Shown here one piece after another: positions 777-17,335 of a DNA stretch of 32,000 bases. How positions within the stretch are numbered: the first letter of the stretch is position 1; each line of letters opens with the position of its first letter. The position numbers were made by a program, and so were the translations under genes. The notes under the pieces were generated by a model, which had not been told where the DNA came from, ran no database searches, and worked only from the letters and a program-made list of their open reading frames with translations. The stretch comes from Nostoc sp. PCC 7120 = FACHB-418 (GTDB lineage: Bacteria; Cyanobacteriota; Cyanobacteriia; Cyanobacteriales; Nostocaceae), in NCBI RefSeq assembly GCF_000009705.1, contig NC_003272.1, positions 150,001 to 182,000 on the forward strand. The letters are read 5' to 3'.

Positions 777-1209
777 GGTCATTCCTTGAACACGATGTGA
801 TACTTACTTCGCTACTCGGCTGCTAATAGTTTACAAATGTTTACTAAAATATTTAACTAGTTTTTACCGTAATTCTCTGCAAAAGTTGTTTAAACTTTTG
901 TCAGAGACTGACAACCTATTGATTGCATATAGAAAAAATAGGATGATAAACTAATAGTCTAAGCGATCGCAGCCAAAATCCATCCAAGCAAATTAGGTTT
1001 TTTGCTGGTTTCTAAGTACAGTGTGCTTCTTGTCGTATTTTTAAACCAGACAACCATAACAAAAATTGCCTTGACAGGAAACAGATTCTTGAATATTGGA
1101 TGAACCTCACCTAAGTAAGTATTACAAATGTATAGTAATCCGATTTGATTATTAAACAAACTTAAGTATTACAAATATAGATTGCTCTGCTAAATAGCTA
1201 TACCCACCC

Positions 1210-1659
1210 ATGTCAATTTTGAATAAACTCCCTTGGACAGCCATAATGCTACTACTGTTGAGCTACAGCACTTTGGGTTGGGTCTTGTCCGAGATGAAAG
1301 CCCCTTGGGCTGTCTGGGTTATTCTTCTGCTGGCGATATTTTTCTTGGTAGGAAGCATCACTGCCCCTTATCCGAAGATAGCTAATTACTCTAGTGTTTT
1401 ACTTGCTTCCAGTATTAGGAGTTTTTTCGTTGCTGTAGCCGGAGCATTCTTATTTTTTATAATGATAGCTTGGTTTCGAGTGTTTCTTGATACATTACTT
1501 GTCATTTCTGCCGCTCTCTTAGCAAGAATCGACTTCCAATCAGATGGGTTTACAGAATGGCAAGCTTTTATAGCTACATTGATTGTTTCAATTGCTGGGG
1601 TAGGATTAGGAGCATTTACAAATATGCTGTTAACCCAAAAGATAATGTTAGGTTTGTAG
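1210..1659 (+). CDS. Hypothetical integral membrane protein (about 4 TM helices)
   Basis: 149-aa ORF with an ATG start. It is strongly hydrophobic with four helix-length apolar segments. The antisense ORF 1386..1676 looks spurious. I recognise no family motif. Confidence 0.5.
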   Translation: MSILNKLPWTAIMLLLLSYSTLGWVLSEMKAPWAVWVILLLAIFFLVGSITAPYPKIANYSSVLLASSIRSFFVAVAGAFLFFIMIAWFRVFLDTLLVISAALLARIDFQSDGFTEWQAFIATLIVSIAGVGLGAFTNMLLTQKIMLGL

Positions 1660-1705
1660 TAGGCGCTCCATACCAAATTTAAGAACTAAAGTATTGACTA
1701 CAAAC

Positions 1706-1729
1706 AAGGTGAGCATGATCGCTCACCTT
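1706..1729. terminator. Bidirectional stem-loop between convergent genes (1210..1659 and rpmA)
   Basis: AAGGTGAGC (1706-1714) and GCTCACCTT (1721-1729) form a perfect 9-bp stem with a 6-nt loop. The hairpin lies between two convergent stop codons. The T-tracts on both sides are weak. Confidence 0.45.
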
Positions 1730-1735
1730 GATCGT

Positions 1736-2014
1736 TTAGCTAGCTACTGCTTCTGCTGCGGCGGCTGGGTAAACGCTAACTTTCTTGCGGGATTTGCCTT
1801 TGCGTTCAAAGGTAACTACACCATCAACCAAGGCAAACAAAGTATCATCTTTACCGATGCCAACATTGTTACCAGCGTGAAACTTGGTTCCACGTTGACG
1901 CACGAGAATGTTACCTGCAATAACGGCTTGTCCGCCAAAGCGCTTTACACCCAGACGCTGGGCGTTAGAATCACGACCGTTGCGTGTACTACCTGTTCCT
2001 TTCTTGTGAGCCAT
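1736..2014 (-). CDS. rpmA: 50S ribosomal protein L27
   Basis: [29 protein letters not shown]... is the canonical L27 N-terminus. The ORF is 92 aa and lies directly downstream of rplU. Confidence 0.97.
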
Positions 2015-2041
2015 AATTTCCTTTTTATTGCTTCTTTACTA

Positions 2042-2434
2042 TTATTCAGCAGCAGTTTCTGTATCTGGGGTAGCGTCGGCAGTTTCCTCAGTTGCAGTAG
2101 GTGCTGTTAAAACTGTGCCGTTAAGAGTGATGGAATCTATTAAAAGTCTGGTGATTTCCTGGCGATGACCCCGTTTTTTGCGGGTCTTCTTTTTCGGCTT
2201 CATTTTATAAACCAGGACTTTGCGACCTCTAAGATGCCGCAACACCGTTCCTTGTACTGTTGCCCCAGCTACTAACGGTTGTCCAATGGTGACTTCACCG
2301 TCATTCTGCACTAGTAATACAGAGTCTATTGTAACTTTTTCATCTGGTTCAACAGAGAGGAGTTCAATATCGTAAAAACGACCTGGCTCAACTCGCACTT
2401 GCTTGCCACCAGTCTCAATAATCGCGTAAGCCAT
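2042..2434 (-). CDS. rplU: 50S ribosomal protein L21
   Basis: [22 protein letters not shown]... is the canonical L21 N-terminus. AAGGA lies 8 nt upstream of the ATG. There is an acidic/Thr-rich C-terminal extension. The rplU-rpmA gene pair is conserved. Confidence 0.95.
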
Positions 2435-2536
2435 GAAATTGTCCTTGAGGTTGCCGTACAGGTAGCTGGTTTTGATTTACCAGCTTTTGTAGTATGTCTA
2501 CCTGATCCGAGCAGGTAATTAGACAGACAATCTAAA

Positions 2537-2566
2537 ATTGTATGCTATTAGCCAATATTAGGTCAA
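2537..2566 (-). promoter_or_regulatory. Candidate sigma70-type promoter of rplU-rpmA
   Basis: On the minus strand this reads TTGACC (2566-2561), an 18-nt spacer, then TACAAT (2542-2537). That places a TSS near 2530 and implies a leader of about 95 nt. Confidence 0.4.
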
Positions 2567-2701
2567 TCTTTTATCTATAGTTTTTGAGGGTATAGCTGGA
2601 AAATTTTCAAATAAAGAACTTATCAATTAATTTCGGCGAAATTTGCGAAATCTCAAAAGTGTTTGATGTAGTAAACAATGACACAGAACAGCACCAACAA
2701 G

Positions 2702-2743
2702 TCTGAGCAAAGGATCTCCTGGCTCAGATTTTCCCTTTTTTAT
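2702..2743 (+). terminator. Orphan plus-strand terminator-like hairpin with T-tract
   Basis: TCTGAGC (2702-2708) pairs with GCTCAGA (2722-2728), followed by TTTTCCCTTTTTTAT. No plus-strand gene ends nearby. Confidence 0.3.
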
Positions 2744-2868
2744 CAGGGAGTGGGAAGTTATGTAAATGCTTGATGCAAGTGATTTTCTTAATCACGAATT
2801 GGCGTAAGCCCATAGTACAGCCCATAACAGTAACATTAAAGTAAGACACTCAATTAGGAGAAGATGAG

Positions 2869-3114
2869 ATGACTTCCCAAGTTGTAGATACTACTTCAGA
2901 TTTAATTGCCAAGCTAGAAACCCTACCACCAGAAAAGTTACAGCAGGTACTAGATTTTGTCGAATTTTTAGCACAGAAATACACTCAAACCCCAGAATCT
3001 GAACAAACGCCTCAAAAACGGGTATTAGGTTTAAATCAAGGAGAAATATGGATGAGTGATGATTTTAATGAGCCTTTACCGGATGAATTTTGGTTGGGTG
3101 AAGGAGAAATATGA
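2869..3114 (+). CDS. Type II antitoxin, DUF2281/VapB-like
   Basis: 81 aa. LPPEKLQQVLDFVEFLAQKY and the C-terminal GEIWMSDDFNEPLPDEFW are typical of DUF2281 antitoxins. GGAG lies upstream. The stop overlaps the PIN gene start by 4 nt (ATGA). Confidence 0.8.
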   Translation: MTSQVVDTTSDLIAKLETLPPEKLQQVLDFVEFLAQKYTQTPESEQTPQKRVLGLNQGEIWMSDDFNEPLPDEFWLGEGEI

Positions 3115-3497
3115 AGTTACTCTTGGATACCCATGTACTTATTTGGTCAACAGGAAATCCAGAAAAACTATCTGAAAGAGTTAAAAACTTACTGCTAGAT
3201 AATAACAACTCTTGGATAGTTAGTGTTGCTAGCGTTTGGGAGTTACAAATTAAATATCAAATTGGCAAGTTAAATTTAAGCTCATCGCTGCCAAATTTGA
3301 TAGAAACTCAACAGCGAGTGAATAATCTACAAATTTTACCTATTGAATTATCTCATATCTATGCTTTGGACAGTTTACCAAACCATCACCGCGACCCTTT
3401 TGATAGAATTGTCATCGCTCAAGCAATATCTGAAAAAATTCCTTTGTTAAGTACAGATACAGTTTTTGATGCCTATCCAGTGGAAAAGATATGGTAG
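3111..3497 (+). CDS. vapC: PIN-domain ribonuclease toxin, VapC family
   Basis: 128 aa. The acidic PIN residues sit in the expected contexts: LLLDTHVLIW, SVWELQIK, DPFDRIVIAQA. It is translationally coupled to the upstream antitoxin. Confidence 0.85.
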   Translation: MKLLLDTHVLIWSTGNPEKLSERVKNLLLDNNNSWIVSVASVWELQIKYQIGKLNLSSSLPNLIETQQRVNNLQILPIELSHIYALDSLPNHHRDPFDRIVIAQAISEKIPLLSTDTVFDAYPVEKIW

Positions 3498-3550
3498 GAA
3501 AACTGGCTCAAATAATTGGGTATAAAGAGCCTATATTTTAATTTATAGAT

Positions 3551-4639
3551 ATGAAAAGAGTAGACGTTGAGAAAAGAACTATTTTAATTGGTTTGGCTGG
3601 TAGCCACGGGTATGGATTAAATCGCCCTGATTCTGATTTGGATTTTCGGGGGGTGTTTATTGCACCTAAAAGGTATTATTTGGGATTTGACCACATAGAA
3701 CAAAAGGATGCAGGTTGGGATGAGCCGGGAATATTTCCTTTGCTGGATGGGAATAAAGACACGGTTATATATGAATTAAGGAAAATACTCCAATTGTTAT
3801 CGGGAGCTAATCCCAATGTTTTGGAGTTGTTATGGTTAAATGAATATCCTGTGTTAACGGATGTCGGACAATATTTAATCAATCATCGGAAATTATTTTT
3901 AAGTAAAAAGGTTAAACATACTTACTCTGGGTATGCTTTTGCTCAAATTAAAAAGATGGAGACCCATCGTAAGTGGTTGTTAAATCCACCAGAGAAGAAA
4001 CCACTACCATCTGATTTTGGCATAGAAGATGAAGCACCCTTAATTAAGGATGATTTGAATGCTTTTTTGGAGTATCTTTATACTTTGATTAGGGGTAGGA
4101 TTGAATTTCTAGAAGAAGCAGAACAATTATATAAGTTGTTAACTGCTGATATTGATTTTAAAGGAGTGCTAAAACAATATACTTTACCTGATGAAACTTT
4201 AGAATATACGCAAAATTTAACTAATAGCCGTAAAGATTTTATTCGGTTGTTACAAAAAAGCCAAAATTACCAAATAGCTTTGAGGGAATGGAAAGCTTAT
4301 TTAAGTTGGCAAGAAAATCGTAACCCGGCTAGGGCAGAGATGGAAAGGAAGTCTGGTTTTGATCTCAAGCATGGGATGCACTGCATTCGCTTGTTACGCA
4401 GTGGGTTGGAAATATTAAAGACTGGAGAAATAACTGTAGATAGGAGAGTTGCGGGTGATGTTGAGGATTTAAAAGCTATCCTCCAGGGTGAGTATTCTTA
4501 TCAGCAGGTGATGGAGATGGCTGATGATTTGGTTGCTCAGATGGATGCTGCTTATGAACATTCAACTATACCCCATAGGCCGGATTTAGAAGCAATTAAT
4601 AATTTGTGTATGGAGTTAGTGGAAATGCAGGGTTGGTAA
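3551..4639 (+). CDS. Pol-beta superfamily nucleotidyltransferase, PF10127 (RlaP/YcgL-like)
   Basis: 362 aa. The N-terminal LAGSHGYGLNRPDSDLDFRGVFIAP matches the G-S...D-x-D minimal nucleotidyltransferase motif in the form typical of the predicted RNA-repair NTase family. This assignment is by eye only. Confidence 0.6.
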   Translation: MKRVDVEKRTILIGLAGSHGYGLNRPDSDLDFRGVFIAPKRYYLGFDHIEQKDAGWDEPGIFPLLDGNKDTVIYELRKILQLLSGANPNVLELLWLNEYPVLTDVGQYLINHRKLFLSKKVKHTYSGYAFAQIKKMETHRKWLLNPPEKKPLPSDFGIEDEAPLIKDDLNAFLEYLYTLIRGRIEFLEEAEQLYKLLTADIDFKGVLKQYTLPDETLEYTQNLTNSRKDFIRLLQKSQNYQIALREWKAYLSWQENRNPARAEMERKSGFDLKHGMHCIRLLRSGLEILKTGEITVDRRVAGDVEDLKAILQGEYSYQQVMEMADDLVAQMDAAYEHSTIPHRPDLEAINNLCMELVEMQGW

Positions 4640-4688
4640 TTGGGAATTGGTGATTGGGAATTGGAAATTGATGATTGGGAGTTGGTTA
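4633..4688. repeat. STRR-like tandem heptamers (TTGGnnA) x8
   Basis: The units are TTGGTAA TTGGGAA TTGGTGA TTGGGAA TTGGAAA TTGATGA TTGGGAG TTGGTTA. The first unit contains the stop codon of the 3551..4639 CDS. Confidence 0.9.
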
Positions 4689-4706
4689 TATACTGATGAT
4701 TTTTTA

Positions 4707-4741
4707 CTATTACCTATTACCTATTACCTATTACCTATTAC
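4707..4741. repeat. Perfect tandem heptamer (CTATTAC) x5
   Basis: There are five exact copies. The array ends 2 nt before the stop codon of the minus-strand ORF at 4744. Confidence 0.95.
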
Positions 4742-4743
4742 CG

Positions 4744-5040
4744 TTAAAGAGTTTTGAGTAAGTCAGCAAAACCATAGAGGCTGATGAAGAGTAGGAGTAG
4801 GGCTGTGAGTTGGGTGACTTTGTTTTCGGGTGAGGGGGCGATCGCTTCTCGTACTAAGATAGAAATGGATGCACCAACTACGAAGCTTAAGCCCAATACT
4901 AAATAAGGTTTGTCTGGTAGAATCACAGCAATGGCTAACATGGCGATCGCTAGCATCAGCATGACTAACTCTACAAATCGGGGTGGGTTGTATTGGCTAG
5001 CTAAAATAAAGCTGTTTAACCAAAAATTCCAATGTCTCAT
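4744..5040 (-). CDS. Hypothetical small membrane protein
   Basis: The ORF contains three hydrophobic helices. The ORF track opens at a TTG (5064), but I prefer the ATG at 5040 (MRHWNFWLNSF...). I recognise no family. Confidence 0.4.
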   Translation of the reverse strand: MRHWNFWLNSFILASQYNPPRFVELVMLMLAIAMLAIAVILPDKPYLVLGLSFVVGASISILVREAIAPSPENKVTQLTALLLLFISLYGFADLLKTL

Positions 5041-8588: not shown

Positions 8589-9779
8589 TTAAAACATCCG
8601 CCGACGTTGACGCTTGTTCTCCATTTGTGGTCTTCGTATTGGTACTACCTCGGCTTCACTACTTTCTCTGGCGACGCGAATTAGTAAACCTGCACCGATT
8701 AAGCTAGCAATCATGGAGTTACCACCATAACTAAACATGGGTAAGGGTAAGCCTGTCGTTGGTAAGGCTCCTGTGGCTACACCAATATGTAACAATGATT
8801 GTCCGACCATGATAATGGTGATGCCCATTGCTACCAAGCGATGAACGGGATTTTTTGTTTTCAGTGCAACTACTAGACCCAGAGTAGTAAATAGAGCTAA
8901 AAGTACTAACAGAACTATGCTACCAACAAAGCCAAATTCTTCTGCGAATACGGCAAAAATAAAATCGGTATCCTGAATTGGTAAATAGAATAACTTTTGT
9001 TGTGACATCCCAAATCCAGCACCCCAGGTTTTACCAGAACCTATGGCTAAGAGACTTTGTACTAACTGATAGCCGTCGCCTGTCGCGTCTGCCCAAGGGT
9101 TGAGAAATGACATTACCCGTCTGCGCTGATACTCTTTGATGCTAATACTGAGTAAGGCTAACAAGAATCCACCAACTGCTGTTCCTGCTAAATATTTATA
9201 GGGTAGGCCAGCAGCTAGGGCAATTAGCCAGATAGTCATACCGCAGAGTGCTGCTGTACTCAAGTTAGGCTGGGCAAGGATGCCTAAAATCACTAACCCG
9301 AAAATACCTAGCCAGGTGAGTCTTACTCGCCAACTCAATCTTTCCCACTGTCCAAATAATCTGGCACTTTGCAGTACTAAAAAGGGTTTAATTAGTTCTG
9401 AGGGTTGAATGGGAATGGGGCCGATAGCTATCCAACGGGCTGCATCAAAAGCTTTTTTACCCAATCCGGGGACAAGGGTAACAAAGATTAATAGTAAGAA
9501 TAATCCTAGTAGCCAATGGGAGATACCCAGAATTTTCTGTAAGGGTCGATTGACAATGACATTAAATCCAACAAGTGAGGCTAAAACCCAGAGGATTTGC
9601 CGCTTAAAGTAATACAACCCATCACCTTGACGGACATCAGCCACTACGTATGATGCTGAAAAGAGTATGGTTAAGCCAACAAATAACCAAAGAAATGTTA
9701 ACCAGCGCAGCAACCGCGCTTCTAATGCCCAGGTGGAGACGGAATCATCAAAAAATGGAATTAGGCTGCGTAGCTTCAC
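8589..9779 (-). CDS. ftsW: SEDS-family peptidoglycan glycosyltransferase / cell division protein FtsW
   Basis: 396 aa with about 10 TM helices. SEDS motifs are present: PSELIKP, TDFIFAVFAEEFGFVG and LPLPMFSYGGNSM. The start is a GTG. FtsW versus RodA cannot be settled by eye. Confidence 0.85.
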   Translation of the reverse strand: MKLRSLIPFFDDSVSTWALEARLLRWLTFLWLFVGLTILFSASYVVADVRQGDGLYYFKRQILWVLASLVGFNVIVNRPLQKILGISHWLLGLFLLLIFVTLVPGLGKKAFDAARWIAIGPIPIQPSELIKPFLVLQSARLFGQWERLSWRVRLTWLGIFGLVILGILAQPNLSTAALCGMTIWLIALAAGLPYKYLAGTAVGGFLLALLSISIKEYQRRRVMSFLNPWADATGDGYQLVQSLLAIGSGKTWGAGFGMSQQKLFYLPIQDTDFIFAVFAEEFGFVGSIVLLVLLALFTTLGLVVALKTKNPVHRLVAMGITIIMVGQSLLHIGVATGALPTTGLPLPMFSYGGNSMIASLIGAGLLIRVARESSEAEVVPIRRPQMENKRQRRRMF

Positions 9780-9852
9780 GATTCATTACAGGTAAAAGGT
9801 GAGGGATTATATCAAGTTTGGATAGTTACTTAATAATACGGTTGGTTTTGTT

Positions 9853-9880
9853 GGTAATGGGTAATGGCTAATAGGTAATT
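9853..9880. repeat. STRR-like heptamers GGTAATG GGTAATG GCTAATA GGTAATT
   Basis: Four tandem units. They are the reverse complement of the (CTATTAC)n family at 4707-4741. Confidence 0.85.
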
Positions 9881-9978
9881 GATTTGTAACATTTAGCTAT
9901 GACCAACTTCCCTAGATATTATTGGTGTCCAAACAGATATGAGATTAGGTGTTAGCATTTAGGTATAACACTCATAAC

Positions 9979-10992
9979 TTATAACTCATAATTGATGATG
10001 TGACCCATGGCAGCAATTGCACCATTGGTATATGTTGGTGCAGGGGATGGCTTTGTTAGTTCTAATTGCTCTAGGATCAATCTCACTGTAATCATGGCAT
10101 CTTCAATATTCTGCACCCAGTAACCTCTGCTAGCTCTTTTTTGTTGGCGATCGTACAATCGCGGTAAGGCTAACGCTACCAACGGTACACCTACGGCAGC
10201 ACATTCGTAAACCGTGTTATATCCTGCACTGCCGATGACTATATCAGCCGCCGCTAGACACTCTATCCCAGGATGATGGGATATCCACAAGCTTTCTGGG
10301 CAATTATGGGGGCAATGAGGAGCTAAAATCCTGACTGCACATTGGGGAAATTTTTGATGAAAATGCAGTGTAATTTCACCAAATAAAGATAGTTCTGATG
10401 CTTGTCCGGCGGCACAAACTAGGATAGTTTTATCTGATGAATTTGTTTTGAGGATATGCGATCGCACTATCATCTTATCTGGTAATTCTTCTGGGTTACG
10501 AATTAACCAAGGTGCTGTGTGCATTACTCCTGGTAAATCAGAAAAGGCTAAATCTGTGCCATCGCCTGGTATTATTAGCCCATGAAAATTTTCTAAAACA
10601 AACGATCGCAAGTTTTTGGTAGCTACATAATGAGGATTGATATCTCGATGGATGAGAATCCGGGGTGTGGCGTGCAATTGGGGTAAGATGTCGGCTATTT
10701 CTCCACCCAAACCTCTGGGAAATGTGTCGATAATTAAGCAGTCAAGGTGAGTATTGAAGATAATTTCCCGTATTTGTAGACAAGTTGTAGCAAAACCTAC
10801 ACTATCGGGAATCCAATGTAGTATGCAGCCTTCATGATTGATTTGTTGTGCATAGGGACTGTTTGTAATAATTTTGACGTTTCTTTGCTTTGCAGCAATT
10901 CTTCCCAAAGACAAAGCACGAGTCAAATGTCCCCAACCGCCACCCAAAGCGTAAATTAGCCAAGTTTTAGTCAATTGTTGGTTAGTTGTCAA
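9979..10992 (-). CDS. GT-B glycosyltransferase, MurG-like (GT28 C-terminal domain type), not canonical MurG
   Basis: 337 aa. It has an N-terminal G-loop YALGGGWGHLTRALSLG and a C-terminal GSAGYNTVYECAAVGVPLVALALPRLYDRQQKRA. TTG is the only available start. Confidence 0.6.
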   Translation of the reverse strand: MTTNQQLTKTWLIYALGGGWGHLTRALSLGRIAAKQRNVKIITNSPYAQQINHEGCILHWIPDSVGFATTCLQIREIIFNTHLDCLIIDTFPRGLGGEIADILPQLHATPRILIHRDINPHYVATKNLRSFVLENFHGLIIPGDGTDLAFSDLPGVMHTAPWLIRNPEELPDKMIVRSHILKTNSSDKTILVCAAGQASELSLFGEITLHFHQKFPQCAVRILAPHCPHNCPESLWISHHPGIECLAAADIVIGSAGYNTVYECAAVGVPLVALALPRLYDRQQKRASRGYWVQNIEDAMITVRLILEQLELTKPSPAPTYTNGAIAAMGHIINYEL

Positions 10993-11059
10993 TTTAGGAC
11001 TTACGCACTCAGGTTGTCTGTTGAGACTGGGGATCGGGGTGTAAGGGTTTTAAAGGTTT

Positions 11060-11677
11060 TTAACTTGCGCCCATATTGGTTTCATAATCGGTATCATATT
11101 CGTTTTCTAAACTCATTGCGTCGGCTTCGGTAAAGTCTATATTGCCTGTTTCCGAGTCGTATTCGTAGCGATCGCGGTTATAGTAATAGCTACTACCCCA
11201 AGAACCAGAATGGTAGTTACCATAGCCGGAATAGTAGGCGTAGTCTTGTTCGTAGGTTGGGTGACAGTGGGGACAGCCTGTGGTGTCTGTGCGTCCACAA
11301 CGGCGCTTAAAGAGAAATCCTATCATGCGATCGCACTCCCCAGGGGTTGTGACTGGGGTAAATTTTACGGTGATTTCACAACTACCGATTTTGATGCGAT
11401 CGCCATTATTTAGACTACCATTAGTTAGTTCTGTGCCGTTGATTTGGATGCCATTATCTGTATTTTGGTCAATAATTATCAGATCTTGATTTTGCCAATC
11501 AATTAAGGCGTGGTAATCTGCTATCAGGTCATCTTCAATGGTAATTCTGGAAACTCTTTGACCATTATTTTCTGATGGCATTGCTGCAAATTTTCGCCCA
11601 ATTGCCACTGGGGTTTCTAATGTTGGTTCGCTGTGTTCCCCTGTGTTGGGAACTATCCAACTTAGTTGAATTTGCAA
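11060..11677 (-). CDS. FHA-domain protein with Cys4 motif and Tyr/Gly/Ser-rich acidic tail
   Basis: The FHA signature reads VAIGR...DYHALIDWQNQDLIIIDQNTDNGIQINGTEL...GDRIKIG. It is followed by C-x11-C-x7-C-x2-C and then YYSGYGNYHSGSWGSSYYYNRDRYEYD. The start is a TTG with GGAGG 11 nt upstream. Confidence 0.8.
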   Translation of the reverse strand: MQIQLSWIVPNTGEHSEPTLETPVAIGRKFAAMPSENNGQRVSRITIEDDLIADYHALIDWQNQDLIIIDQNTDNGIQINGTELTNGSLNNGDRIKIGSCEITVKFTPVTTPGECDRMIGFLFKRRCGRTDTTGCPHCHPTYEQDYAYYSGYGNYHSGSWGSSYYYNRDRYEYDSETGNIDFTEADAMSLENEYDTDYETNMGAS

Positions 11678-11680
11678 GGT

Positions 11681-12349
11681 TTACTGTCCTCCTGTGGAAT
11701 TAACTGCATAAGCTAAAGCCGCTTGTTGTTCGCGGGTAAGTACGTCAAATCCAAAGCAAGCAAATGCAATGGGAGAGATATTTGATTTTGTGGAGAAAAC
11801 AGTTTTACCTGGGGGATTTCTTAAGGATATTTTTCCTTCTTTAATTCTCACTTGATACACTATTTTTGTATCTGCGCTAGCAATTTCTAAACCTTTGGCA
11901 TTTGTCTTAATCTGGTAAATTTCTTTTTTCTTACCATCTGTTAATTGATAATTTCCATTACCTTGTAGACTGAGAACATATAAAATTTGTTTGCCGTCTG
12001 GATTCTCTAGCTGCCAATTACCTTGAGATGTAACTACATAGCCTAAAACTTTATCTTGAGAATTTTTCAGTTTTAACTTATTAGCTTTATCTACTTTTAT
12101 TCTGGCTATTTCTTGATTTTTACCATCAACTAACTTTGCTCCATCCGCTTGCTGCTTCAGTGCAAATAAGTCTGAACCACCTTCTGTTTTAAATTTAATT
12201 TTATCGGTACTTTCAACATTAGCAGCTACAGGCGTTACGGCTGGATTATTGGGAGTGACTACAGAGTTAGGTGATTGATTACTATTACAACTAACAATTA
12301 ATGTCAGTAGTAAGCCTGAAACTAAAAATTTTAGAAATCGTTTTTTCAT
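11681..12349 (-). CDS. Lipoprotein of unknown function with internal beta-hairpin-like repeats
   Basis: The signal peptide plus lipobox reads MKKRFLKFLVSGLLLTLIVS-C. The protein is Lys/Gln-rich with repeated x-L-x-D/P-GK-x-x-I motifs. Its ATG lies 2 nt after the upstream stop. Confidence 0.7.
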   Translation of the reverse strand: MKKRFLKFLVSGLLLTLIVSCNSNQSPNSVVTPNNPAVTPVAANVESTDKIKFKTEGGSDLFALKQQADGAKLVDGKNQEIARIKVDKANKLKLKNSQDKVLGYVVTSQGNWQLENPDGKQILYVLSLQGNGNYQLTDGKKKEIYQIKTNAKGLEIASADTKIVYQVRIKEGKISLRNPPGKTVFSTKSNISPIAFACFGFDVLTREQQAALAYAVNSTGGQ

Positions 12350-12351
12350 GA

Positions 12352-13254
12352 CTATTTAGAAAGTAATTTAGCTAAATTCAGCACTTGATAACAACTTAGA
12401 AACATGGCTGCAATTGTTTCATATAAAGTATTTTGAACTTCCACAAATTGAGGTGCAATTCTGGCACTAATATTAATAGATTTATCTGTGACTTTCGCTA
12501 ATCTTAGTGTAGATGACTGTGGTAGTTTAACTGCACTATTGATCTCGTTTTGTAAAACTTTAATTGCTCCGTAGCGACTTTGAGGATAAGATAACTTCAA
12601 GTCTATATCTAAACCCATTCCTTTAGTTTTTGTTTTATATTTTTGCTTTCCACTGCTGCCCCGTTTCCAGCCATATTCTTTTTTAGATAGTTCAGTTAAA
12701 CTTAGATTAAAACGAGTTTTATCTAAAAATTGACCTTGTAGCCGTAACCATTCATTGCGATAACTATCTACTTTCCATCCTGACTTATATGGGTGGGGAT
12801 TAGTACCTATTTTGTTGTTATCAATTTCCATAGGTTGAAAAGATAGTTTTAAATCAAAGACAGATGCTTTATCCATATCCCTACCCAGCATCTGTAAAAT
12901 CTGCTTTGTTAAATTATATCGATGGTTACTAATATTTGTTTTTTTATATTGGCTCCGTTTCACTAAAGTATAAATACAGGCAACTATCAGCGCAAGTGTG
13001 ACTAGGAATAGCCCTATCATGGATAAGCTGAATATAAGATGATTGTTACTTGAAATCAATAAAATAAAAAGTAAGGTACAAGAGGTTAATATTCCCAGGA
13101 AATAGAATAAAGCTTTTTTACCATATTCTTTTTGCTTCATTTCTGAAAGCTGATCAATTTCTGCAATTTGTTGTAAATCATCTAATATGTTTGCTAACGG
13201 AAATTGTGCGGTGTATAGCAAATCTTTTCGCAAATTGTTTAACTCAATAGCCAT
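12352..13254 (-). CDS. Hypothetical membrane protein (N-terminal helix, 2 TM, C-terminal Lys-rich domain of about 200 aa)
   Basis: 300-aa ORF with an ATG start. Two hydrophobic helices span roughly residues 48-100. I recognise no family motif. It is the first gene of a tightly coupled three-gene unit. Confidence 0.6.
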   Translation of the reverse strand: MAIELNNLRKDLLYTAQFPLANILDDLQQIAEIDQLSEMKQKEYGKKALFYFLGILTSCTLLFILLISSNNHLIFSLSMIGLFLVTLALIVACIYTLVKRSQYKKTNISNHRYNLTKQILQMLGRDMDKASVFDLKLSFQPMEIDNNKIGTNPHPYKSGWKVDSYRNEWLRLQGQFLDKTRFNLSLTELSKKEYGWKRGSSGKQKYKTKTKGMGLDIDLKLSYPQSRYGAIKVLQNEINSAVKLPQSSTLRLAKVTDKSINISARIAPQFVEVQNTLYETIAAMFLSCYQVLNLAKLLSK

Positions 13255-13381
13255 ATTGTCTAAAAATCGTAATTATTATTTAAAATTTATTAATTTAAGT
13301 GAATAAAAAAGTCAAATCATCCCAGCTTCGCCGCAAGTATATCAAACAGAAAATAACCTGTCAACGAATTTATAAACTTGT

Positions 13382-14575
13382 ATGAATAAATTGAGTATCG
13401 CTTATATTACTTTCGATATTGTACCTGCGCCAAAGGGAGCATCAGTTCATATTGAGGCTTTTTCTTCGGCTTTAGCAGATGCTTATGAAGAAATACATTT
13501 ATTAACAGTTTCCCCAACGGCAGAATTGATATATTCAGAGCAAATTCATCCAAATATTAATCATGTAATGTTACCTGCTTTAGGTAATGATTTCATTCAG
13601 CGAGTTCTGTACTTCCGTCGAGCTTTACAAGGTTGGTTAAAAAATCAGCGATTTGATGTCATACATATTCGCTCAATTTATGAAGGTTTGATAATTGCTT
13701 GTAATAAAAAGCAATATTGTGACAGGTTAATTTTTGAAGTGAATGGTTTACCTTCCATAGAGTTAAAATATCGCTATCCGGCTGTGGCTGATGATGAGGA
13801 GCTACTGTATAAGCTACATTCCCAAGAGCAAATTTGTTTAAATGCAGCAGATTTGGTTGTAACCCCTAGTTATGTGACTGCTAAATATTTACAGGAAAGG
13901 GAAATATCAGAGAATAAAATTAAAGTTATTCCTAATGGCGTAGATTTAGATATATTTACTTATAGTAAGACTCAGCAGTTCAATACCGATCTAGTTCATT
14001 TACCTTACCAGATGCTATATTTTGGTACATTTTCATCGTGGCAAGGTGTGAATTTAGCGATTGAAGCGTTAGGTTTAGTGAATCGAGATTTTCCTGCTTG
14101 TTTAACAGTGATAGGACAAGGGAGAAATTATCAAATAAAAACTTTAAAACAACTAGCTTATAAGTTGGGTGTGGCAGACAAACTCAACATTTTAGAACCC
14201 ATGCCCCAAAAAGAGTTGGTTGCACATATTCATAGTTCAGATGTAATTTTAGCGCCTTTAACGGCAAACGATCGCAATCTCGTCCAAGGTTGTTGTCCCC
14301 TAAAGATTTTGGAAGGTATGGCGACGGGAACGCCTGTAATTACTAGTGATATACCAGTCGTGCAAGAGTTGGGAGAAAATGGAGTGCATTTTTTATCAGT
14401 CAAGCCAGGTTCAGCCAAGGCAATTAAGGATGCTGTGGTACAGTTACGAAATGATCAAGATTTAGCATCTCAACTAGCTATCAATGGCCGTCAACGCATA
14501 GAGGCGCATTACACTTGGCAAGGCGCGGGTAAGGATTTAATTGCGGCTTATCAGGAATTAATTACTGTTGACTAA
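13382..14575 (+). CDS. Glycosyltransferase, GT4 (group 1) family
   Basis: 397 aa with a GT-B C-terminal domain: ILEGMATGTPVITSDIPVVQELGENGVHFL, in an E-x7-E type context. Confidence 0.8.
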   Translation: MNKLSIAYITFDIVPAPKGASVHIEAFSSALADAYEEIHLLTVSPTAELIYSEQIHPNINHVMLPALGNDFIQRVLYFRRALQGWLKNQRFDVIHIRSIYEGLIIACNKKQYCDRLIFEVNGLPSIELKYRYPAVADDEELLYKLHSQEQICLNAADLVVTPSYVTAKYLQEREISENKIKVIPNGVDLDIFTYSKTQQFNTDLVHLPYQMLYFGTFSSWQGVNLAIEALGLVNRDFPACLTVIGQGRNYQIKTLKQLAYKLGVADKLNILEPMPQKELVAHIHSSDVILAPLTANDRNLVQGCCPLKILEGMATGTPVITSDIPVVQELGENGVHFLSVKPGSAKAIKDAVVQLRNDQDLASQLAINGRQRIEAHYTWQGAGKDLIAAYQELITVD

Positions 14576-15712
14576 ACAATCAATCACAACTTGTAGTTGC
14601 TGTTGTTCTTGAGAGATAGAATACTTGGTGAGGATGCGATCGCGTGCTGCTTGTTGAATGCAATTTTTCTCTCCTGCTGGCATTTGTAAACACTCCAAAA
14701 CCGCCTCACCTAATTTGTGCAGATGAGAACGAGGTAGCAAAAAGCCATTTTCACCATGTAAAATCACCTCTGGAATACCACCCGCATCACTGGCGATACA
14801 ACAGCAACCGCAAGCCATCGCTTCTAAAAGGGCATTGGGCATACCTTCCCACAGAGAAGGCTGGAGGTAAACATCACATAACTGTAGATAGGCGGCGACT
14901 GTTTGCGAGTCTGATAAATGTCCAGTCACTATTATCCTTTGGGCATCTTCTGGCTGCTGACTTGCATATAATTGCAACACAGATTCTTGAGAAGTCCTCA
15001 CTTCACCAATAATTAATAGACAAGCTGGGCGTTGTTGGCGGACTATTGTTAGGGCATTAAGGAGGAATTGCTGTCCTTTCTTTTCCCGCAATTCTCCACA
15101 AAATCCTAAAACCACTTCGTCAGGTGCAATTCCTAAAGTAGCCCGCAGATTAGTTTCTGCCAATGGTGCAAAAATATCTGTATCTACAGCATTTTTCAAC
15201 ACCAAAACATCATTTCGTCCACTCAATAGGTGAATTTTCCGTGCCATATCCGCACTCACTGCGGTGATAACTTTGGCGTGTTGCAACGTCCATTGCAGCC
15301 GGGCAAAATCCCCAGGGGGAAACATTTCCCGGTCAATATCGTTACCACGGGCGCTAACTGTACTGGCTATTCCTTGCAAAGCAGCAAACCAAGTCGCTAA
15401 AAAGCCACTAGGAAACAAGTAATGTCCCCAAACTGCATCGTAGGCGCGAGTTTGATGCAGCCACTCTAAAAAATTGAGGGTGTGGGGCATTGTCATATCC
15501 CAATGGCGATATAAGCCGATGCGGTAGACGCGGGGTTGTCCATTTAAAGATGTGGGTGGTGAGACTTCCCCTGGCTGCAAGTAACGACTCCAACTGACAA
15601 CATCAACTTCTACACCTAATTGAGACAGTGTTTTTACTAGACGTGTGGCACTAGTCGCTAAACCGCCTAAGTCTGGGGCAAATCTTTCTGTAATTAATAA
15701 AAGACGTGTCAT
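14558..15712 (-). CDS. Glycosyltransferase, GT4 (group 1) family
   Basis: 384 aa. It has N-terminal ITERFAPDLGGLATS and C-terminal PSLWEGMPNALLEAMACGCCCIASDAGGIPEVILHGENGFLL. Its 3' end overlaps the convergent GT4 gene by 18 nt. Confidence 0.85.
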   Translation of the reverse strand: MTRLLLITERFAPDLGGLATSATRLVKTLSQLGVEVDVVSWSRYLQPGEVSPPTSLNGQPRVYRIGLYRHWDMTMPHTLNFLEWLHQTRAYDAVWGHYLFPSGFLATWFAALQGIASTVSARGNDIDREMFPPGDFARLQWTLQHAKVITAVSADMARKIHLLSGRNDVLVLKNAVDTDIFAPLAETNLRATLGIAPDEVVLGFCGELREKKGQQFLLNALTIVRQQRPACLLIIGEVRTSQESVLQLYASQQPEDAQRIIVTGHLSDSQTVAAYLQLCDVYLQPSLWEGMPNALLEAMACGCCCIASDAGGIPEVILHGENGFLLPRSHLHKLGEAVLECLQMPAGEKNCIQQAARDRILTKYSISQEQQQLQVVIDCLVNSN

Positions 15713-15870
15713 GATTACTATCTGCGATATTCATCACCGCAATCGTCGATTAATTGATCTAATATGTAACGTGTTGCCACATTCCGTTTAATATCAGGCA
15801 AATATTTAAATCAGAGGGAAATTGCAACCTGCTGTCTGCTGATAGGGACATTTTTGGGAATTTAAAAGTT

Positions 15871-16206
15871 TTAACGCCAGCCTTTTTCTGCTTGTTCTAG
15901 AACGTAAGCCGCCACATCTTGAATTTCTTGTTCACTGAGACGGTCTTTGTAGGCTGACATATTATTTTTACCATTAGTGACGATCGCTTCAATGGCTTCT
16001 AGGGAATCCATCCCATATTTTTTTAGCGTCTTCTTTTGCAAGTTCTTACCACGCCGGATAATATTACTACCATTGATATGACAACCTGCACAGTGAACAC
16101 TAAAGATTTGTTCGCCATTGATTGTATTTTCTGCATTTGCAGGCGGAGTCAAAGTACTTATCAAGAATAAAAAGGTTACTAATACTAATTTGAGAAATTT
16201 CTGCAC
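15871..16206 (-). CDS. Cytochrome c6-like protein (c6B/c6C-type isoform)
   Basis: A signal peptide ends in PPANA. The heme site is CAGCH, and there is an axial Met in KNNMSAY. The NIIRRGKNL motif is typical of c6-like rather than canonical c6. The start is a GTG. Confidence 0.8.
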   Translation of the reverse strand: MQKFLKLVLVTFLFLISTLTPPANAENTINGEQIFSVHCAGCHINGSNIIRRGKNLQKKTLKKYGMDSLEAIEAIVTNGKNNMSAYKDRLSEQEIQDVAAYVLEQAEKGWR

Positions 16207-16534
16207 GTAGCTGCTCCTATAATGATGTGTTTCTTACTAAAAAATACTTAATTTCTGAAATATGTGTAGTTTTGGTGGACATTGCCTACCCTACAGATAC
16301 TTATATTTTTATGGGCAAGCGCAGGCTACGCCAACAATAATCAAATCGGATTCCTATAGTCACATACTCATCATCCCATAGATGGACAACAAGTTATACA
16401 TGACCTACTTTAGTATGGATATTCTAATTTTATGTCTCTAGGAAGTACCACAAATATGATGACTAAACCATAATGTAGAAGGAAGACTATCTACAAAAAT
16501 TTTATCCAAATTATCTAAATCACAAGAGTTGAAA

Positions 16535-17335
16535 ATGACTAATAATATCAAACAACAAATTCAAGCAGACTTACAGCAAGCAAAATCAACTGGGCAGCTA
16601 AAAAGTGAGAGAATCAGAGAAATTGTCAAAGCCGCAGTTTCTCAAGTTGCCTCTGAATTGAAAGAGGGTTCTAGTGAAATTCGTTCTCTAGTTAAAGATG
16701 CAGTTTCTACCGTAATTGAAAATCTCCAAGACAAAGGTACAGAAATCAAGGAAGAAGTTACAGCTTCTATTGAAGGAGCTATTGAAGGTGTTAATACTAA
16801 AAGACATGAGGCGATAGTTAGAAGTCAGTCAGAGTTGCAAAGACTGCAAGCTCAAATTGATGGTGAAGAAGAAAAAATTCAGCAAGAAGTTGATGGTATC
16901 TTAGCAGAAATAGCGGAAAATGGTAAGCAAGAAACTGCTAGCACAAAAACTGTAATTGATTCTGCCATTGATGTTATCAAAAATAGTGAAGAAGTTTCCC
17001 TCTTACAAAAGCGTTACGCGCAATTACAAGCACAACTATCAATAGTTAGGGCTAATTTAGCGGCTCGTTACGGCGGACGTTCAGAAGAAGTCAAAAATTA
17101 TCTGGATGAAGCCAAGATATGGTATGAGCAGGCTCGTCCCCAGGCTGAAGTTCTGGCTACTCAGGTAGAGGAGAAGCGATCGCAAATAGATAGTAAACTA
17201 GGGGAAGCTGGTACATCCCTAGCGAGAAAAGAGCGTCAAGTCAAACAAACTTTAAGAGAACTATTACTAGCAACTGCTGATTTGTTCAAAGATAAGGAAC
17301 ATCCAGAGCAAGAGAAAGAAGTCACACGCAAGTAA
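16535..17335 (+). CDS. Coiled-coil / amphipathic-repeat protein (LEA- or apolipoprotein-like)
   Basis: The ORF is rich in E, K, Q and A and has no Cys or Trp-rich core. It has repeats of about 23 residues: SERIREIVKAAVSQVASELKEGS / SEIRSLVKDAVSTVIENLQDKGT / EIKEEVTASIEGAIEGVNTKRHE. I prefer the ATG at 16535 over the TTG at 16529. Confidence 0.65.
   Translation: MTNNIKQQIQADLQQAKSTGQLKSERIREIVKAAVSQVASELKEGSSEIRSLVKDAVSTVIENLQDKGTEIKEEVTASIEGAIEGVNTKRHEAIVRSQSELQRLQAQIDGEEEKIQQEVDGILAEIAENGKQETASTKTVIDSAIDVIKNSEEVSLLQKRYAQLQAQLSIVRANLAARYGGRSEEVKNYLDEAKIWYEQARPQAEVLATQVEEKRSQIDSKLGEAGTSLARKERQVKQTLRELLLATADLFKDKEHPEQEKEVTRK

Follow-up and report, generated by a model that had tools for sequence, protein, structure and literature searches.

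A conserved six-gene cassette around all0158-all0157-all0156 of Nostoc sp. PCC 7120 with a probable role in membrane glycoconjugate assembly

In the phosphatidylinositol mannoside pathway of Actinobacteria, the cytoplasmic GT4 enzymes PimA and PimB', both of the GT-B type, act on a membrane lipid, and the lipoprotein LpqW handles the product on the periplasmic side. Two GT4 enzymes also work together in the GtfA/GtfB system, which glycosylates serine-rich repeat adhesins and in which one partner lacks the canonical catalytic motif. FHA domains are tied to cell-wall synthesis by the mycobacterial proteins FhaA and FipA. In cyanobacteria, steps of envelope glycolipid and lipopolysaccharide-core synthesis are still unassigned, and the strain PCC 7120 is genetically tractable. 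Here we describe a locus of this strain (Nostoc/Anabaena sp. PCC 7120) located in a window of 32 kb, the whole stretch of DNA that was analysed. The genes all0158, all0157 and all0156, encoding the proteins designated here as p1, p2 and p3, respectively, had been presented in an initial annotation as an orphan three-gene operon. Comparison of related loci revealed instead that they are, as judged from sequence, the non-enzymatic half of an undescribed six-gene cassette together with all0155, alr0159 and all0160, with a gene order conserved across cyanobacteria and beyond (Table 1). A literature search on locus tags and key terms retrieved no functional study of p1-p2-p3, and the cassette is undescribed in the literature searched; we infer that its function is most likely glycoconjugate assembly.

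Table 1. Positions of genes, protein segments and regulatory sites of the cassette in the window
Feature	Position	Strand	Remarks
all0155, GT-B glycosyltransferase of GT1/GT28 type	9979..10992	minus	fourth gene of the same-strand run
p3 = all0156	11060..11677	minus	ORF, 205 aa, TTG start
p3 Tyr/Gly-rich linker, then DFTEAD and acidic tail ending MGAS	11063..11263	minus	Y149, Y152, Y155 and W160-G161 invariant
p3 cysteine cluster C115-x11-C127-x7-C135-x2-C138	11264..11335	minus	presumed zinc site; start of the conserved core
p3 FHA domain	11384..11602	minus	residues 26-98
p2 = all0157	11681..12349	minus	ORF, 222 aa
p2 signal peptide and lipobox (LIVS-C21)	12287..12349	minus	MKKRFLKFLVSGLLLTLIVS-C21
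p1 = all0158	12352..13254	minus	ORF, 300 aa
p1 poly-lysine beta-hairpin tip	12619..12675	minus	YGWKRGSSGKQKYKTKTKG; most conserved motif of the p1 family
p1 membrane hairpin	12955..13110	minus	residues ~49-100; variable sequence and length among homologs
FurC (PerR) box	13262..13280	minus	AATAATAATTACGATTTTT; published site, located in the window sequence (PMC10406281)
Sigma-70-like promoter candidate	13336..13364	minus	TTGACA-17-TATACT with extended TG; best match of the region, consensus match only
alr0159 = GT4b, GT4 glycosyltransferase	13382..14575	plus	divergent from p1
all0160 = GT4a, GT4 glycosyltransferase	14558..15712	minus	converges on GT4b, 18-nt 3' overlap

The three minus-strand reading frames, their almost contiguous junctions, the TTG start of p3 and its Shine-Dalgarno site, all reported in the initial annotation, were confirmed on the sequence. 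The junction of p1 and p2 reads TAG-tc-ATG and that of p2 and p3 TAA-acc-TTG, with a GGAGG at 11688-11692 separated from the TTG by a spacer of 10 nt. The gap between p2 and p3 is at most 10 nt in 62 of 72 related loci (exactly 3 nt in 42), the start codon of p3 is TTG in 48 of 70, and a Shine-Dalgarno core precedes it in 59 of 70. This conservation exceeds chance and bears out the translational coupling claimed earlier, and the three genes are thus predicted to constitute a real, tightly coupled operon whose coupling is conserved across related loci. The original gene model of all0156 has to be corrected, as the GenBank record starts at Met33 and is truncated to 173 aa compared with the 205 aa obtained from the TTG.

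The genes share one strand, minimal gaps, a conserved order and co-regulation, as found for members of an operon, and a single transcript is predicted. In a published transcriptome all three were grouped in one expression cluster (PMC4915528). A sigma-70-like promoter match precedes the start codon of all0158 by about 80 nt, and no terminator-like site was found on the minus strand from 13254 down to 9979, that is, into all0155. An Rfam scan of positions 9700-16400 revealed no known RNA. The FurC box is situated in the 127-bp divergent all0158/alr0159 intergenic region and was positive in EMSA (PMC10406281).

In 136 loci labelled by HMMs for the cassette families, the recurrent order is GT4a, GT4b on the opposite strand, p1, p2, p3 and the GT1/GT28-like transferase. 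The co-occurrence and neighbourhood conservation proposed as a check of the operon were indeed observed, with p1, p2 and p3 recurring together in the labelled loci. The cassette was found across cyanobacteria and also in contigs of 31-74% GC which are poor in HIP1 (GCGATCGC). When only loci of 9 kb or more are counted, the HIP1-rich ones contain p1 in 73 of 75 cases, p2 in 66, the GT28-like gene in 71, GT4b in 69 and all six genes in 54, and the respective values for the HIP1-poor ones are 16, 14, 15, 15 and 10 of 16; all these counts are lower bounds, since contig ends truncate many loci. L081, L082, L084, L088 and L109 have the same genes in permuted order, and p2 is absent in some loci (L036, L049, L050, L068, L069, L070 and L074). 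The GT4 pair stays even beside distant p1 relatives. As to the taxonomy of the HIP1-poor contigs, only hints were obtained, from flanking genes of myxobacterial or planctomycete type in two of them: a MopE/RCC1 protein in L125 and PSCyt/PSD1/DUF1501 proteins in L088.

In the AF2 model (pLDDT 89, pTM 0.79) of p1, a protein with 10% Lys, a strand and a helix at the cytoplasmic N-terminus lead into a membrane hairpin of two helices, which is followed by an alpha/beta domain, again cytoplasmic, with a long helix at its end. Lys and Arg residues flank the membrane hairpin at both cytoplasmic ends, and its SSNNHL loop carries no charge. The positive-inside rule predicts that both termini of p1 are cytoplasmic and that only about six residues reach the periplasm. 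Conservation within p1 is lowest in the hairpin, the conserved part being the cytoplasmic domain; because sequence and length of the hairpin vary between homologs, it probably serves as an anchor rather than as a channel. In the model, the poly-lysine tip forms the turn between strands 181-198 and 204-222. Residues K197, K203, K205, K207 and K209 are invariant in alignment A1, K207 and K209 are preserved in distant family members, and in 108 of 117 sequences the median charge of this 18-residue segment is +8.

The statement that p1 and p2 belong to no family by motif proved correct: neither these proteins nor their homologs gave a significant family match in Pfam, NCBIfam or PADLOC, and the p1 and p2 alignments, used as profiles against PDB sequences, retrieved nothing. 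Matches of both proteins and their homologs were sub-threshold noise only (DUF3671, SLATT_1, DUF2207_C, bMG3 and LOR), and the UniRef labels 'DUF3137' and 'DUF4231' of a few p1 homologs were not reproduced by Pfam scans. Comparison of the p1 model with PDB and BFVD by Foldseek revealed no match at E≤1e-3; the best high-probability fold lead for the cytoplasmic domain was the type III secretion chaperone Spa15, with a probability of 0.91, a TM score of 0.46 and an E-value of 0.087, which is not significant. With 1090 representatives at the 50% identity level, p1 is, on present profiles, the founding member of an unnamed family. The idea that p1 and p2 are tubby-like paralogs was rejected, as profile-profile comparison gave a probability of 0.3%. 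In several loci p1 is tandemly duplicated.

From about 11.5 to 14.2 kb the GC content is only 0.30-0.36, compared with 0.40-0.46 in the flanks. The AT-rich stretch (given earlier as 11.7-13.3 kb) and the HIP1 gap were both confirmed, the former extending even further, into the plus-strand gene alr0159. HIP1 is present in 30 copies in the window and absent between 11403 and 14636, but this gap alone is not unusual because a longer one exists at 970-4838. The low GC content of p1 and p2 is preserved in 57 of 60 genomes and therefore gives no sign of recent transfer, and a repeat search around the locus revealed no flanking or terminal repeats marking a mobile insertion. Recent horizontal transfer was consequently rejected as the source of AT-richness, and with synteny conserved as well, neither AT-richness nor the HIP1 gap can be taken as a mark of foreign origin. 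The same chromosomal neighbourhood across Nostocales together with the conserved low GC content argues for vertical inheritance of the cassette.

These observations bear on the possibility of a conflict or defence system acquired horizontally, with the AT-rich composition as a trace of the transfer. In such a system, p1 would act as a pore-forming effector with two helices, similar to SLATT proteins, and the GT4 enzymes would modify the invader or the cell surface. As in SLATT effectors (PF18181), a helix precedes the two-helix membrane hairpin of p1, and this part was placed on viral SLATT proteins by Foldseek (probability 0.93-0.95, E 0.29); SLATT_1 appeared below threshold in 5 of 33 p1 homologs (best E 1.4e-3) and in P0467. 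Furthermore, all0160 barely reaches the cut-off of the GT4-conflict profile PF20706 (26.5 vs 26 bits), one p1 homolog is fused to TerB, and the tandem duplications of p1 would be compatible with such a role. However, the window protein gave no SLATT match and p1 stays below every threshold, its membrane hairpin being the variable and not the conserved part. Generic GT4 models score far above GT4-conflict (116 vs 26 bits), the six proteins gave no PADLOC family at E≤0.1, and among the six recurrent genes of the 136 loci, which were screened for the cassette families only, neither a SMODS/SLOG or other nucleotide-signal partner nor a nucleotide-generating, NTPase or nuclease partner was identified. 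The vWA/MoxR or GTPase cores on which NTP-dependent conflict systems are built (PMC7159879) are absent here. Given vertical inheritance as well, we consider a defence function very unlikely.

The second protein, p2 (11.7% Lys), carries a signal peptide followed by a lipobox, as expected for a lipoprotein, and Cys21 is invariant in 35 homologs and also preserved in two HIP1-poorer, high-GC homologs (alignment A5). AF2 modelling of mature p2 yielded a 14-strand beta-barrel-like fold with pLDDT values above 92 for residues 50-220, together with helices 193-200 and 206-218; a closed beta-meander appears to surround a hydrophobic C-terminal helix. The top Foldseek match was 1zxu (E 3.3e-5, probability 1.0, TM 0.51, rmsd 10.7 Å) from the LURP-one-related/Tubby C-terminal/phospholipid scramblase superfamily (PF04525), whose barrel around a C-terminal helix the p2 model may resemble. 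In contrast to this superfamily, p2 has 14 instead of 12 strands, is an exported lipoprotein and remains below the curated Pfam cut-off: PF04525 was detected sub-threshold in 5 of 35 homologs (best E 9e-4) and gave no match for the window protein. Hence, p2 is recognisable by its modelled fold only, as a probable tubby/LURP-one-like barrel. Structure prediction combined with Foldseek, proposed as a check of the three proteins, gave this fold match for p2 and no PDB match for p1 at the threshold used.

For p3, profile searches identified a genuine FHA domain (PF00498, 46.2 bits vs a cut-off of 20.7, E 6.4e-12). The best PDB sequence matches of the profile were FhaA (3po8, 3.4e-6) and GarA, and many p3 homologs also matched PF16697 (Yop-YscD_cpl). 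The likeness of p3 to mycobacterial FhaA (Rv0020c) and GarA, and to the non-phospho-binding FHA domain of YscD/EscD, is that of a true FHA domain; p3 differs in that its binding residues are degenerate, the cassette does without the domain outside cyanobacteria and no kinase partner was found at the locus. Among 119 p3 homologs, the canonical Ser of S-x-x-H is replaced by Ala in 103, the Arg of G-R is kept in 78, the Asn of N-G in 45 and the His in 118, and a conserved set of phosphothreonine-binding residues was not found. The domain is present in 84 of 90 HIP1-rich loci and in 1 of 43 HIP1-poor loci. The phosphothreonine-reader domain of the initial annotation therefore stands as an FHA domain but not as a core part. 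The distribution identifies it as a lineage-specific addition to p3, almost confined to HIP1-rich loci of apparently cyanobacterial type, rather than a central component of the cassette.

Three elements make up the conserved core of p3: a cysteine cluster presumed to bind zinc, a linker rich in Tyr and an acidic tail. Cysteines 115, 127, 135 and 138 are invariant or nearly so. The linker contains 22% Tyr and is of low complexity except for Y149, Y152, Y155 and W160-G161, which, together with the C-terminal residue of p3, are invariant from cyanobacteria to high-GC contigs; the tail has a median net charge of -8. Sequence searches assigned this core module to no described family.

The initial annotation likened the operon to a trans-envelope module for signalling or scaffolding, and regulation of the divisome or septal junctions was among the functions it considered. 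In this interpretation, the cytoplasmic FHA domain would read phosphothreonine, and the membrane protein and the lipoprotein would form a relay next to ftsW. The locus offers several features in agreement with this proposal: the FHA domain is real, as in the mycobacterial proteins that connect such domains with the cell wall, ftsW and the MurG-like gene lie directly downstream in PCC 7120, and ftsW adjoins the cassette in 39 of 75 HIP1-rich loci. However, the ftsW-adjacent loci are all labelled Nostocales except L002 (Leptolyngbyaceae), and adjacency was observed in 0 of 16 HIP1-poor loci; the ftsW neighbourhood is thus essentially a feature of Nostocales-labelled loci, and a link to the divisome is not supported. 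A trans-envelope role is likewise at odds with the predicted topology of p1, which would expose only about six residues to the periplasm. The FHA domain is missing in 42 of 43 HIP1-poor loci and mostly lacks its canonical Ser, the six recurrent genes include no identified kinase or phosphatase, and the invariant partners are three glycosyltransferases. The divisome or signalling interpretation is largely refuted by synteny, and we regard it as extremely improbable.

The first of these glycosyltransferases, all0155, adjoins p3 in almost all loci. Its C-terminal nucleotide-sugar domain and N-terminal Gly-rich loop with a His correspond to GT-B enzymes of the GT28/GT1 type; PF04101 was matched with 24.5 bits (cut-off 22) and found in 16 of 30 orthologs. 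Residues G17, G19, G21, H22, G257, Y258 and E263 are invariant and the GGYNTxxE donor motif is kept. The initial annotation described all0155 as MurG-like; assignment as MurG itself was rejected (TIGR01133, 21.2 bits vs an equivalog cut-off of 250.25). With MurG (GT28) and the GT1 enzymes YjiC, OleD and CalG2 it shares the GT-B layout, the G-x-G-x-G-H loop and the C-terminal nucleotide-sugar motif; its profile is closer to GT1 UDP-glycosyltransferases (YjiC at 1.2e-9) than to MurG, and it is conserved beside p3, not beside cell-wall genes. Both alr0159 and all0160 matched PF00534, PF13692, PF13439 and PF13579 well above the cut-offs, while the best PDB matches of the pair reached 44-84 bits only (BshA, MshA). 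In GT4a, the [E/D]-x7-E motif is intact, with E/D289 and E297 kept in 68 of 68 sequences. In GT4b, the first position of E-x7-E is an invariant Gly within QGCCPLKxLE (84 of 84), and this protein, which lacks the first Glu, could have a non-catalytic role.

From these data we infer that the cassette probably builds a membrane-bound, sugar-carrying molecule, that is, it functions in the assembly or handling of a membrane-associated glycoconjugate. Acting on the cytoplasmic side of the inner membrane, the three transferases would assemble a short glycan on an acceptor associated with the membrane, which is most likely a lipid. There, p1 may serve as membrane anchor and organiser, its poly-lysine hairpin (+8) holding the acidic tail of p3 (-8), an anionic lipid, or both. 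The small, presumably zinc-binding p3 would recruit or position the enzymes, and the Lys-rich lipoprotein p2 might bind the product or pass it on at the periplasmic side. In cyanobacteria, the N-terminal FHA domain added to p3 could provide a regulatory input, which may be phosphothreonine-independent. Both the lipid acceptor and the contact between p1 and p3 are suggested rather than observed. In favour of this interpretation are the operon, the conserved cassette, the motifs kept in GT4a and all0155, the membrane and periplasmic features of p1 and p2 and the charge complementarity of p1 and p3. Loci devoid of p2, the missing first Glu of GT4b, a conserved set to which no flippase, polymerase or ABC exporter belongs and the accessory radical SAM/SPASM and MNIO genes of some lineages count against it. 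Overall, we assign a probability of about 0.55 to the complete explanation, namely a vertically inherited cassette of a non-enzymatic half and three transferases making a membrane glycoconjugate.

Alternatively, p3 itself may be the acceptor. As a protein or peptide scaffold, it would receive sugar from the GT1-type enzyme at an invariant Tyr or the C-terminal region of its core, with extension by the GT4 enzymes, tailoring by accessory peptide-modifying enzymes in some lineages and p1 holding the acidic tail. The invariant residues in an otherwise low-complexity linker and the match of the all0155 profile to enzymes of the YjiC/OleD/CalG2 type are in agreement with this alternative, as GT1-type relatives of all0155 glycosylate phenolic hydroxyls. 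In five lineages a radical SAM/SPASM gene is found immediately upstream of GT4a, and L109 carries an MNIO (MbnB-like) gene close to the cassette; peptide modification fits these accessory genes at least as well as sugar tailoring. Finally, the fold of Spa15, the lead obtained for the cytoplasmic domain of p1, binds extended peptides. However, sugars are also targets of SPASM enzymes and sulfotransferases, the Spa15 lead is not significant, a cytoplasmic glycoprotein leaves the conserved lipoprotein p2 unexplained, and modification of p3 was not observed directly. We therefore consider p3 an unlikely acceptor. A broader version is likewise unlikely. Here, the p3 core would be a dedicated protein scaffold on which the transferases make either a glycan linked to tyrosine or a small molecule that is released, with participation of radical SAM/SPASM, MNIO or sulfotransferase enzymes in some lineages, and p1 and p2 would act as membrane-tethered holder and periplasmic receiver. 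If true, a p3 scaffold would represent a protein-primed glycoconjugate pathway, for which we know of no described bacterial counterpart.

Assembly of a membrane glycoconjugate thus remains the preferred interpretation. From Nostoc to HIP1-lacking marine and soil bacteria, the p1 family keeps the same three glycosyltransferases as partners, p1 and the p3 core are without a family by sequence, p1 has no match among solved structures and p2 is known by fold only. Such a distribution suggests a glycoconjugate pathway of the envelope or membrane that is widespread but unstudied. Compared with the GtfA/GtfB system, the cassette shows no detectable orthology and no accessory Sec genes, and its candidate acceptor p3 is cytoplasmic and Tyr-rich rather than Ser-rich; by analogy only, both have a fixed GT4 pair, one member of which (GT4b) is without the canonical motif, beside a low-complexity candidate acceptor. 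The phosphatidylinositol mannoside pathway is not orthologous to the cassette either, its LpqW is unlike the predicted tubby-like barrel of p2, and we know of no p1 or p3 counterpart in it. The likeness lies in the combination of GT4 enzymes with a lipoprotein, and all0160 matches PimB' structures at about 1e-13.

The genes all0158, all0157 and all0156, encoding p1, p2 and p3, had initially been annotated as an orphan operon. Comparison across genomes revealed instead that they accompany three glycosyltransferases as a conserved unit. Scanning genomes with p3 as the seed yielded 80 loci from many cyanobacterial orders, whose ORFs were labelled with profiles of p1, p2, p3 and the neighbouring proteins. 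Nearly everywhere the order was GT4a (all0160), GT4b (alr0159, on the opposite strand), p1, p2, p3 and a transferase resembling all0155. A metagenome scan seeded with the core module of p3 added 48 loci with this six-gene order, most of them on marine or soil contigs with little or no HIP1, the repeat that distinguishes cyanobacterial-type (HIP1-rich) from other (HIP1-poor) loci. Among loci of at least 9 kb, many of them cut by contig ends so that the counts are lower bounds, p1 was present in 73/75 HIP1-rich and 16/16 HIP1-poor loci, p2 in 66/75 and 14/16, the all0155-like gene in 71/75 and 15/16, GT4b in 69/75 and 15/16, and all six genes in at least 54/75 and 10/16. The GC content of HIP1-poor loci ranged from 31 to 74%; a flanking MopE/RCC1 protein suggests that one of these contigs is myxobacterial, and flanking PSCyt, PSD1 and DUF1501 proteins suggest that another is planctomycete-like. 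An exhaustive profile search gave 1090 representatives of the p1 family (E≤1e-3), 251 of them at E≤1e-30. Where distant members occur, the contig again has the GT4 pair, in most cases together with p2, a short p3 and an all0155-like gene, and the order sometimes differs. A divisome-signalling role is poorly supported, as FtsW follows the cassette only in Nostocales-labelled loci, with L002 (labelled Leptolyngbyaceae) as the sole exception.

Features of the cassette and its surroundings (window coordinates)
Feature	Position	Strand
ftsW (all0154)	8589..9779	minus
all0155, GT-B transferase	9979..10992	minus
all0156 (p3)	11060-11677	minus
all0157 (p2)	upstream of p3	minus
all0158 (p1)	upstream of p3	minus
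FurC (PerR) box, all0158/alr0159 intergenic region	13262-13280	
alr0159 (GT4b)	13382..14575	plus
all0160 (GT4a)	14558..15712	minus
Cytochrome c6-like ORF	15871-16206	
268-aa ORF	16529-17335	

The three ORFs and both of their junctions were read from the sequence as initially described; p2 is 100% identical to BAB77681 and p3 to the corrected form of all0156, both of Nostoc/Anabaena sp. PCC 7120. In a published table alr0159 has the chromosome position 163382-164575, from which the window spans 150001-182000 of the chromosome. The supposed coupling of p1, p2 and p3 was confirmed by short gaps, a TTG start and a Shine-Dalgarno core conserved across loci, and the three genes form a conserved, coupled operon. 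In 62/72 related loci p2 and p3 are at most 10 nt apart (exactly 3 nt in 42); p1 and p2 are at most 10 nt apart in 39/66, and p3 and all0155 at most 100 nt in 54/77. TTG is the start codon of p3 in 48/70 loci, and conserved T-G-G codons at the end of p2 supply the Shine-Dalgarno core that lies ahead of the start in 59/70; here GGAGG lies 10 nt upstream of the TTG. Since residues 1–32 of p3 are conserved, the TTG start at 11677 is real and the 173-aa gene model is truncated. This original GenBank model (BAB77680) begins at Met33 and lacks the first third of the FHA domain. The top promoter-like site of an 8-kb scan was located upstream of all0158, and the same scan found no terminator-like site on that strand down to all0155. 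The three genes belong to one expression cluster in a calcium-response transcriptome (PMC4915528), and the box between all0158 and alr0159 was bound by FurC in gel-shift assays (PMC10406281). The 3′ ends of the convergent GT4a and GT4b genes overlap by 18 nt (14558-14575); both this arrangement and the divergent GT4b/p1 promoter region that comes next recur in HIP1-rich and HIP1-poor loci. The flanking cytochrome c6-like ORF (CxxCH, 111 aa) and 268-aa ORF are syntenic in the two closest relatives only (L001, L002).

The AT-richness and the lack of HIP1 noted in the initial annotation were both evident: between about 11.5 and 14.2 kb the GC is only 0.30-0.36, and the stretch 11403-14636 has no HIP1 site, though another part of the window has a longer gap. 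The GC of p1 and p2, which are rich in Lys, Asn and Ile, lies below that of their own locus in 57/60 genomes (mean 7.3 and 5.2 points), while that of p3 and all0155 does not. As this low GC and the synteny are conserved and no flanking repeats were found at the cassette, the AT-richness is a lasting trait of p1 and p2 and does not mark a recent acquisition. Three HIP1 sites (11168, 11327, 11396) fall within the 618-nt p3 gene and none within p1, p2 and most of alr0159, a distribution paralleling their GC3 difference.

As initially stated, p1 and p2 could be placed in no family: neither they nor 33–35 homologs, scanned or used as profiles, gave a match above threshold in Pfam, NCBIfam, PADLOC or PDB sequences. 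A defence role is poorly supported. The AlphaFold model of p1 is confident (pLDDT 89, pTM 0.79) and predicts a short strand at the N terminus and a long helix that leads into a membrane hairpin of two helices, then an alpha/beta domain that includes three very long strands, and a 26-residue C-terminal helix. Both termini should be cytoplasmic by the positive-inside rule, because Lys/Arg flank both cytoplasmic ends of the hairpin and the connecting loop is SSNNHL. The membrane hairpin is the least conserved region, and the most conserved motif, G-K-x-K-[YH]-K-x-K, lies at the tip of a long beta-hairpin, where an 18-aa segment has a median charge of +8 in 108/117 sequences. Against solved and viral predicted structures the model had no match at E≤1e-3; two candidate leads lie above this threshold, the cytoplasmic domain resembling a type III secretion chaperone (prob 0.91, TM 0.46) and the N-terminal helices SLATT proteins (prob 0.93-0.95, E 0.29). 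Two or three tandem p1 paralogs occur in several loci (L047, L057, L058, L068, L087, L109, L113, L114), and single fusions carry a C-terminal TerB domain or an N-terminal zinc ribbon (P0467 in L082; P0505 in L084).

The p2 protein carries a signal peptide and a lipobox with invariant Cys. Its mature part, modelled at pLDDT >92, is predicted to form 14 strands and a hydrophobic C-terminal helix. The top structural match was the LURP-one-related tubby-like barrel 1zxu (E 3.3e-5, prob 1.0, TM 0.51), a likeness by fold only; weak PF04525 matches in 5/35 homologs are consistent with it, and by sequence p2 falls outside PF04525.

The annotated FHA domain of p3 gave a significant match and is present in 84/90 HIP1-rich loci versus 1/43 others (a Prochloron contig); homologs in HIP1-poor loci are 118–143 aa long and lack it. 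Aligned to mycobacterial FhaA, the canonical Ser is Ala in 103/119 homologs, with Asn retained in 45/119 and Arg in 78/119; a preprint naming "all0157" among less conserved bacterial FHA domains probably refers to p3. The core module, which matched no family by sequence, comprises a Cys cluster (four Cys in Nostoc, seven Cys and a His in short forms), a Tyr-rich linker (22% Tyr, ~45 aa) with invariant Y149, Y152, Y155 and W160-G161, and DFTEAD followed by an acidic tail (median net charge -8) always ending in Ser.

Among the enzymes, GT4a is nearest to BshA-type GT4 structures (84 bits) and GT4b to MshA (44 bits), and both are orthologs of no curated family. GT4a retains [E/D]-x7-E; GT4b has QGCCPLKxLE in its place (residues 302–311 of alr0159, invariant in 84/84 orthologs) and may serve GT4a as an atypical or non-catalytic partner. 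All0155 retains the donor-binding motif as well as the Gly-rich loop, including His22; it scores far below the MurG equivalog cut-off, and a search with its profile hit GT1 UDP-glycosyltransferases, for example YjiC at 1.2e-9.

Some lineages have further genes beside the cassette. In five of them (L058, L061, L068, L081 and L082) the gene immediately upstream of GT4a is a radical SAM/SPASM gene that fits no curated family, and its coding region overlaps the GT4a start in L082; an MNIO (MbnB-like) peptide maturase gene lies nearby in L109. Marine HIP1-poor cassettes add a sulfotransferase and a ~320-aa protein without match in Pfam or NCBIfam (L097:1367-3145, L098:759-2544; also L109-L113, L121, L088). 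On the planctomycete-like contig, GT4a is split over three frames (L088:3133-4156), either as a pseudogene or through long-read assembly errors.

We infer that at the cytoplasmic face the three enzymes would assemble a short glycan, using an acceptor associated with the membrane. The machinery would be anchored and organised by p1, whose lysine hairpin would pair with anionic lipid or the acidic p3 tail. In the periplasm p2, a lipoprotein rich in lysine, may handle the product, and the FHA domain may contribute regulation in cyanobacteria. In the main rival explanation p3 itself is the acceptor or scaffold, for which its invariant tyrosines, the GT1-type enzyme and the adjoining radical SAM/SPASM and MNIO genes argue. 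The literature searched contains no functional characterisation of any of the six genes, and their composition matches no described pathway. Sequence searches gave no family for p1 or the p3 core, no solved structure matched p1, and p2 can be recognised by fold only; the superfamilies of the enzymes are known, and operons that make envelope glycoconjugates are a familiar type of system.
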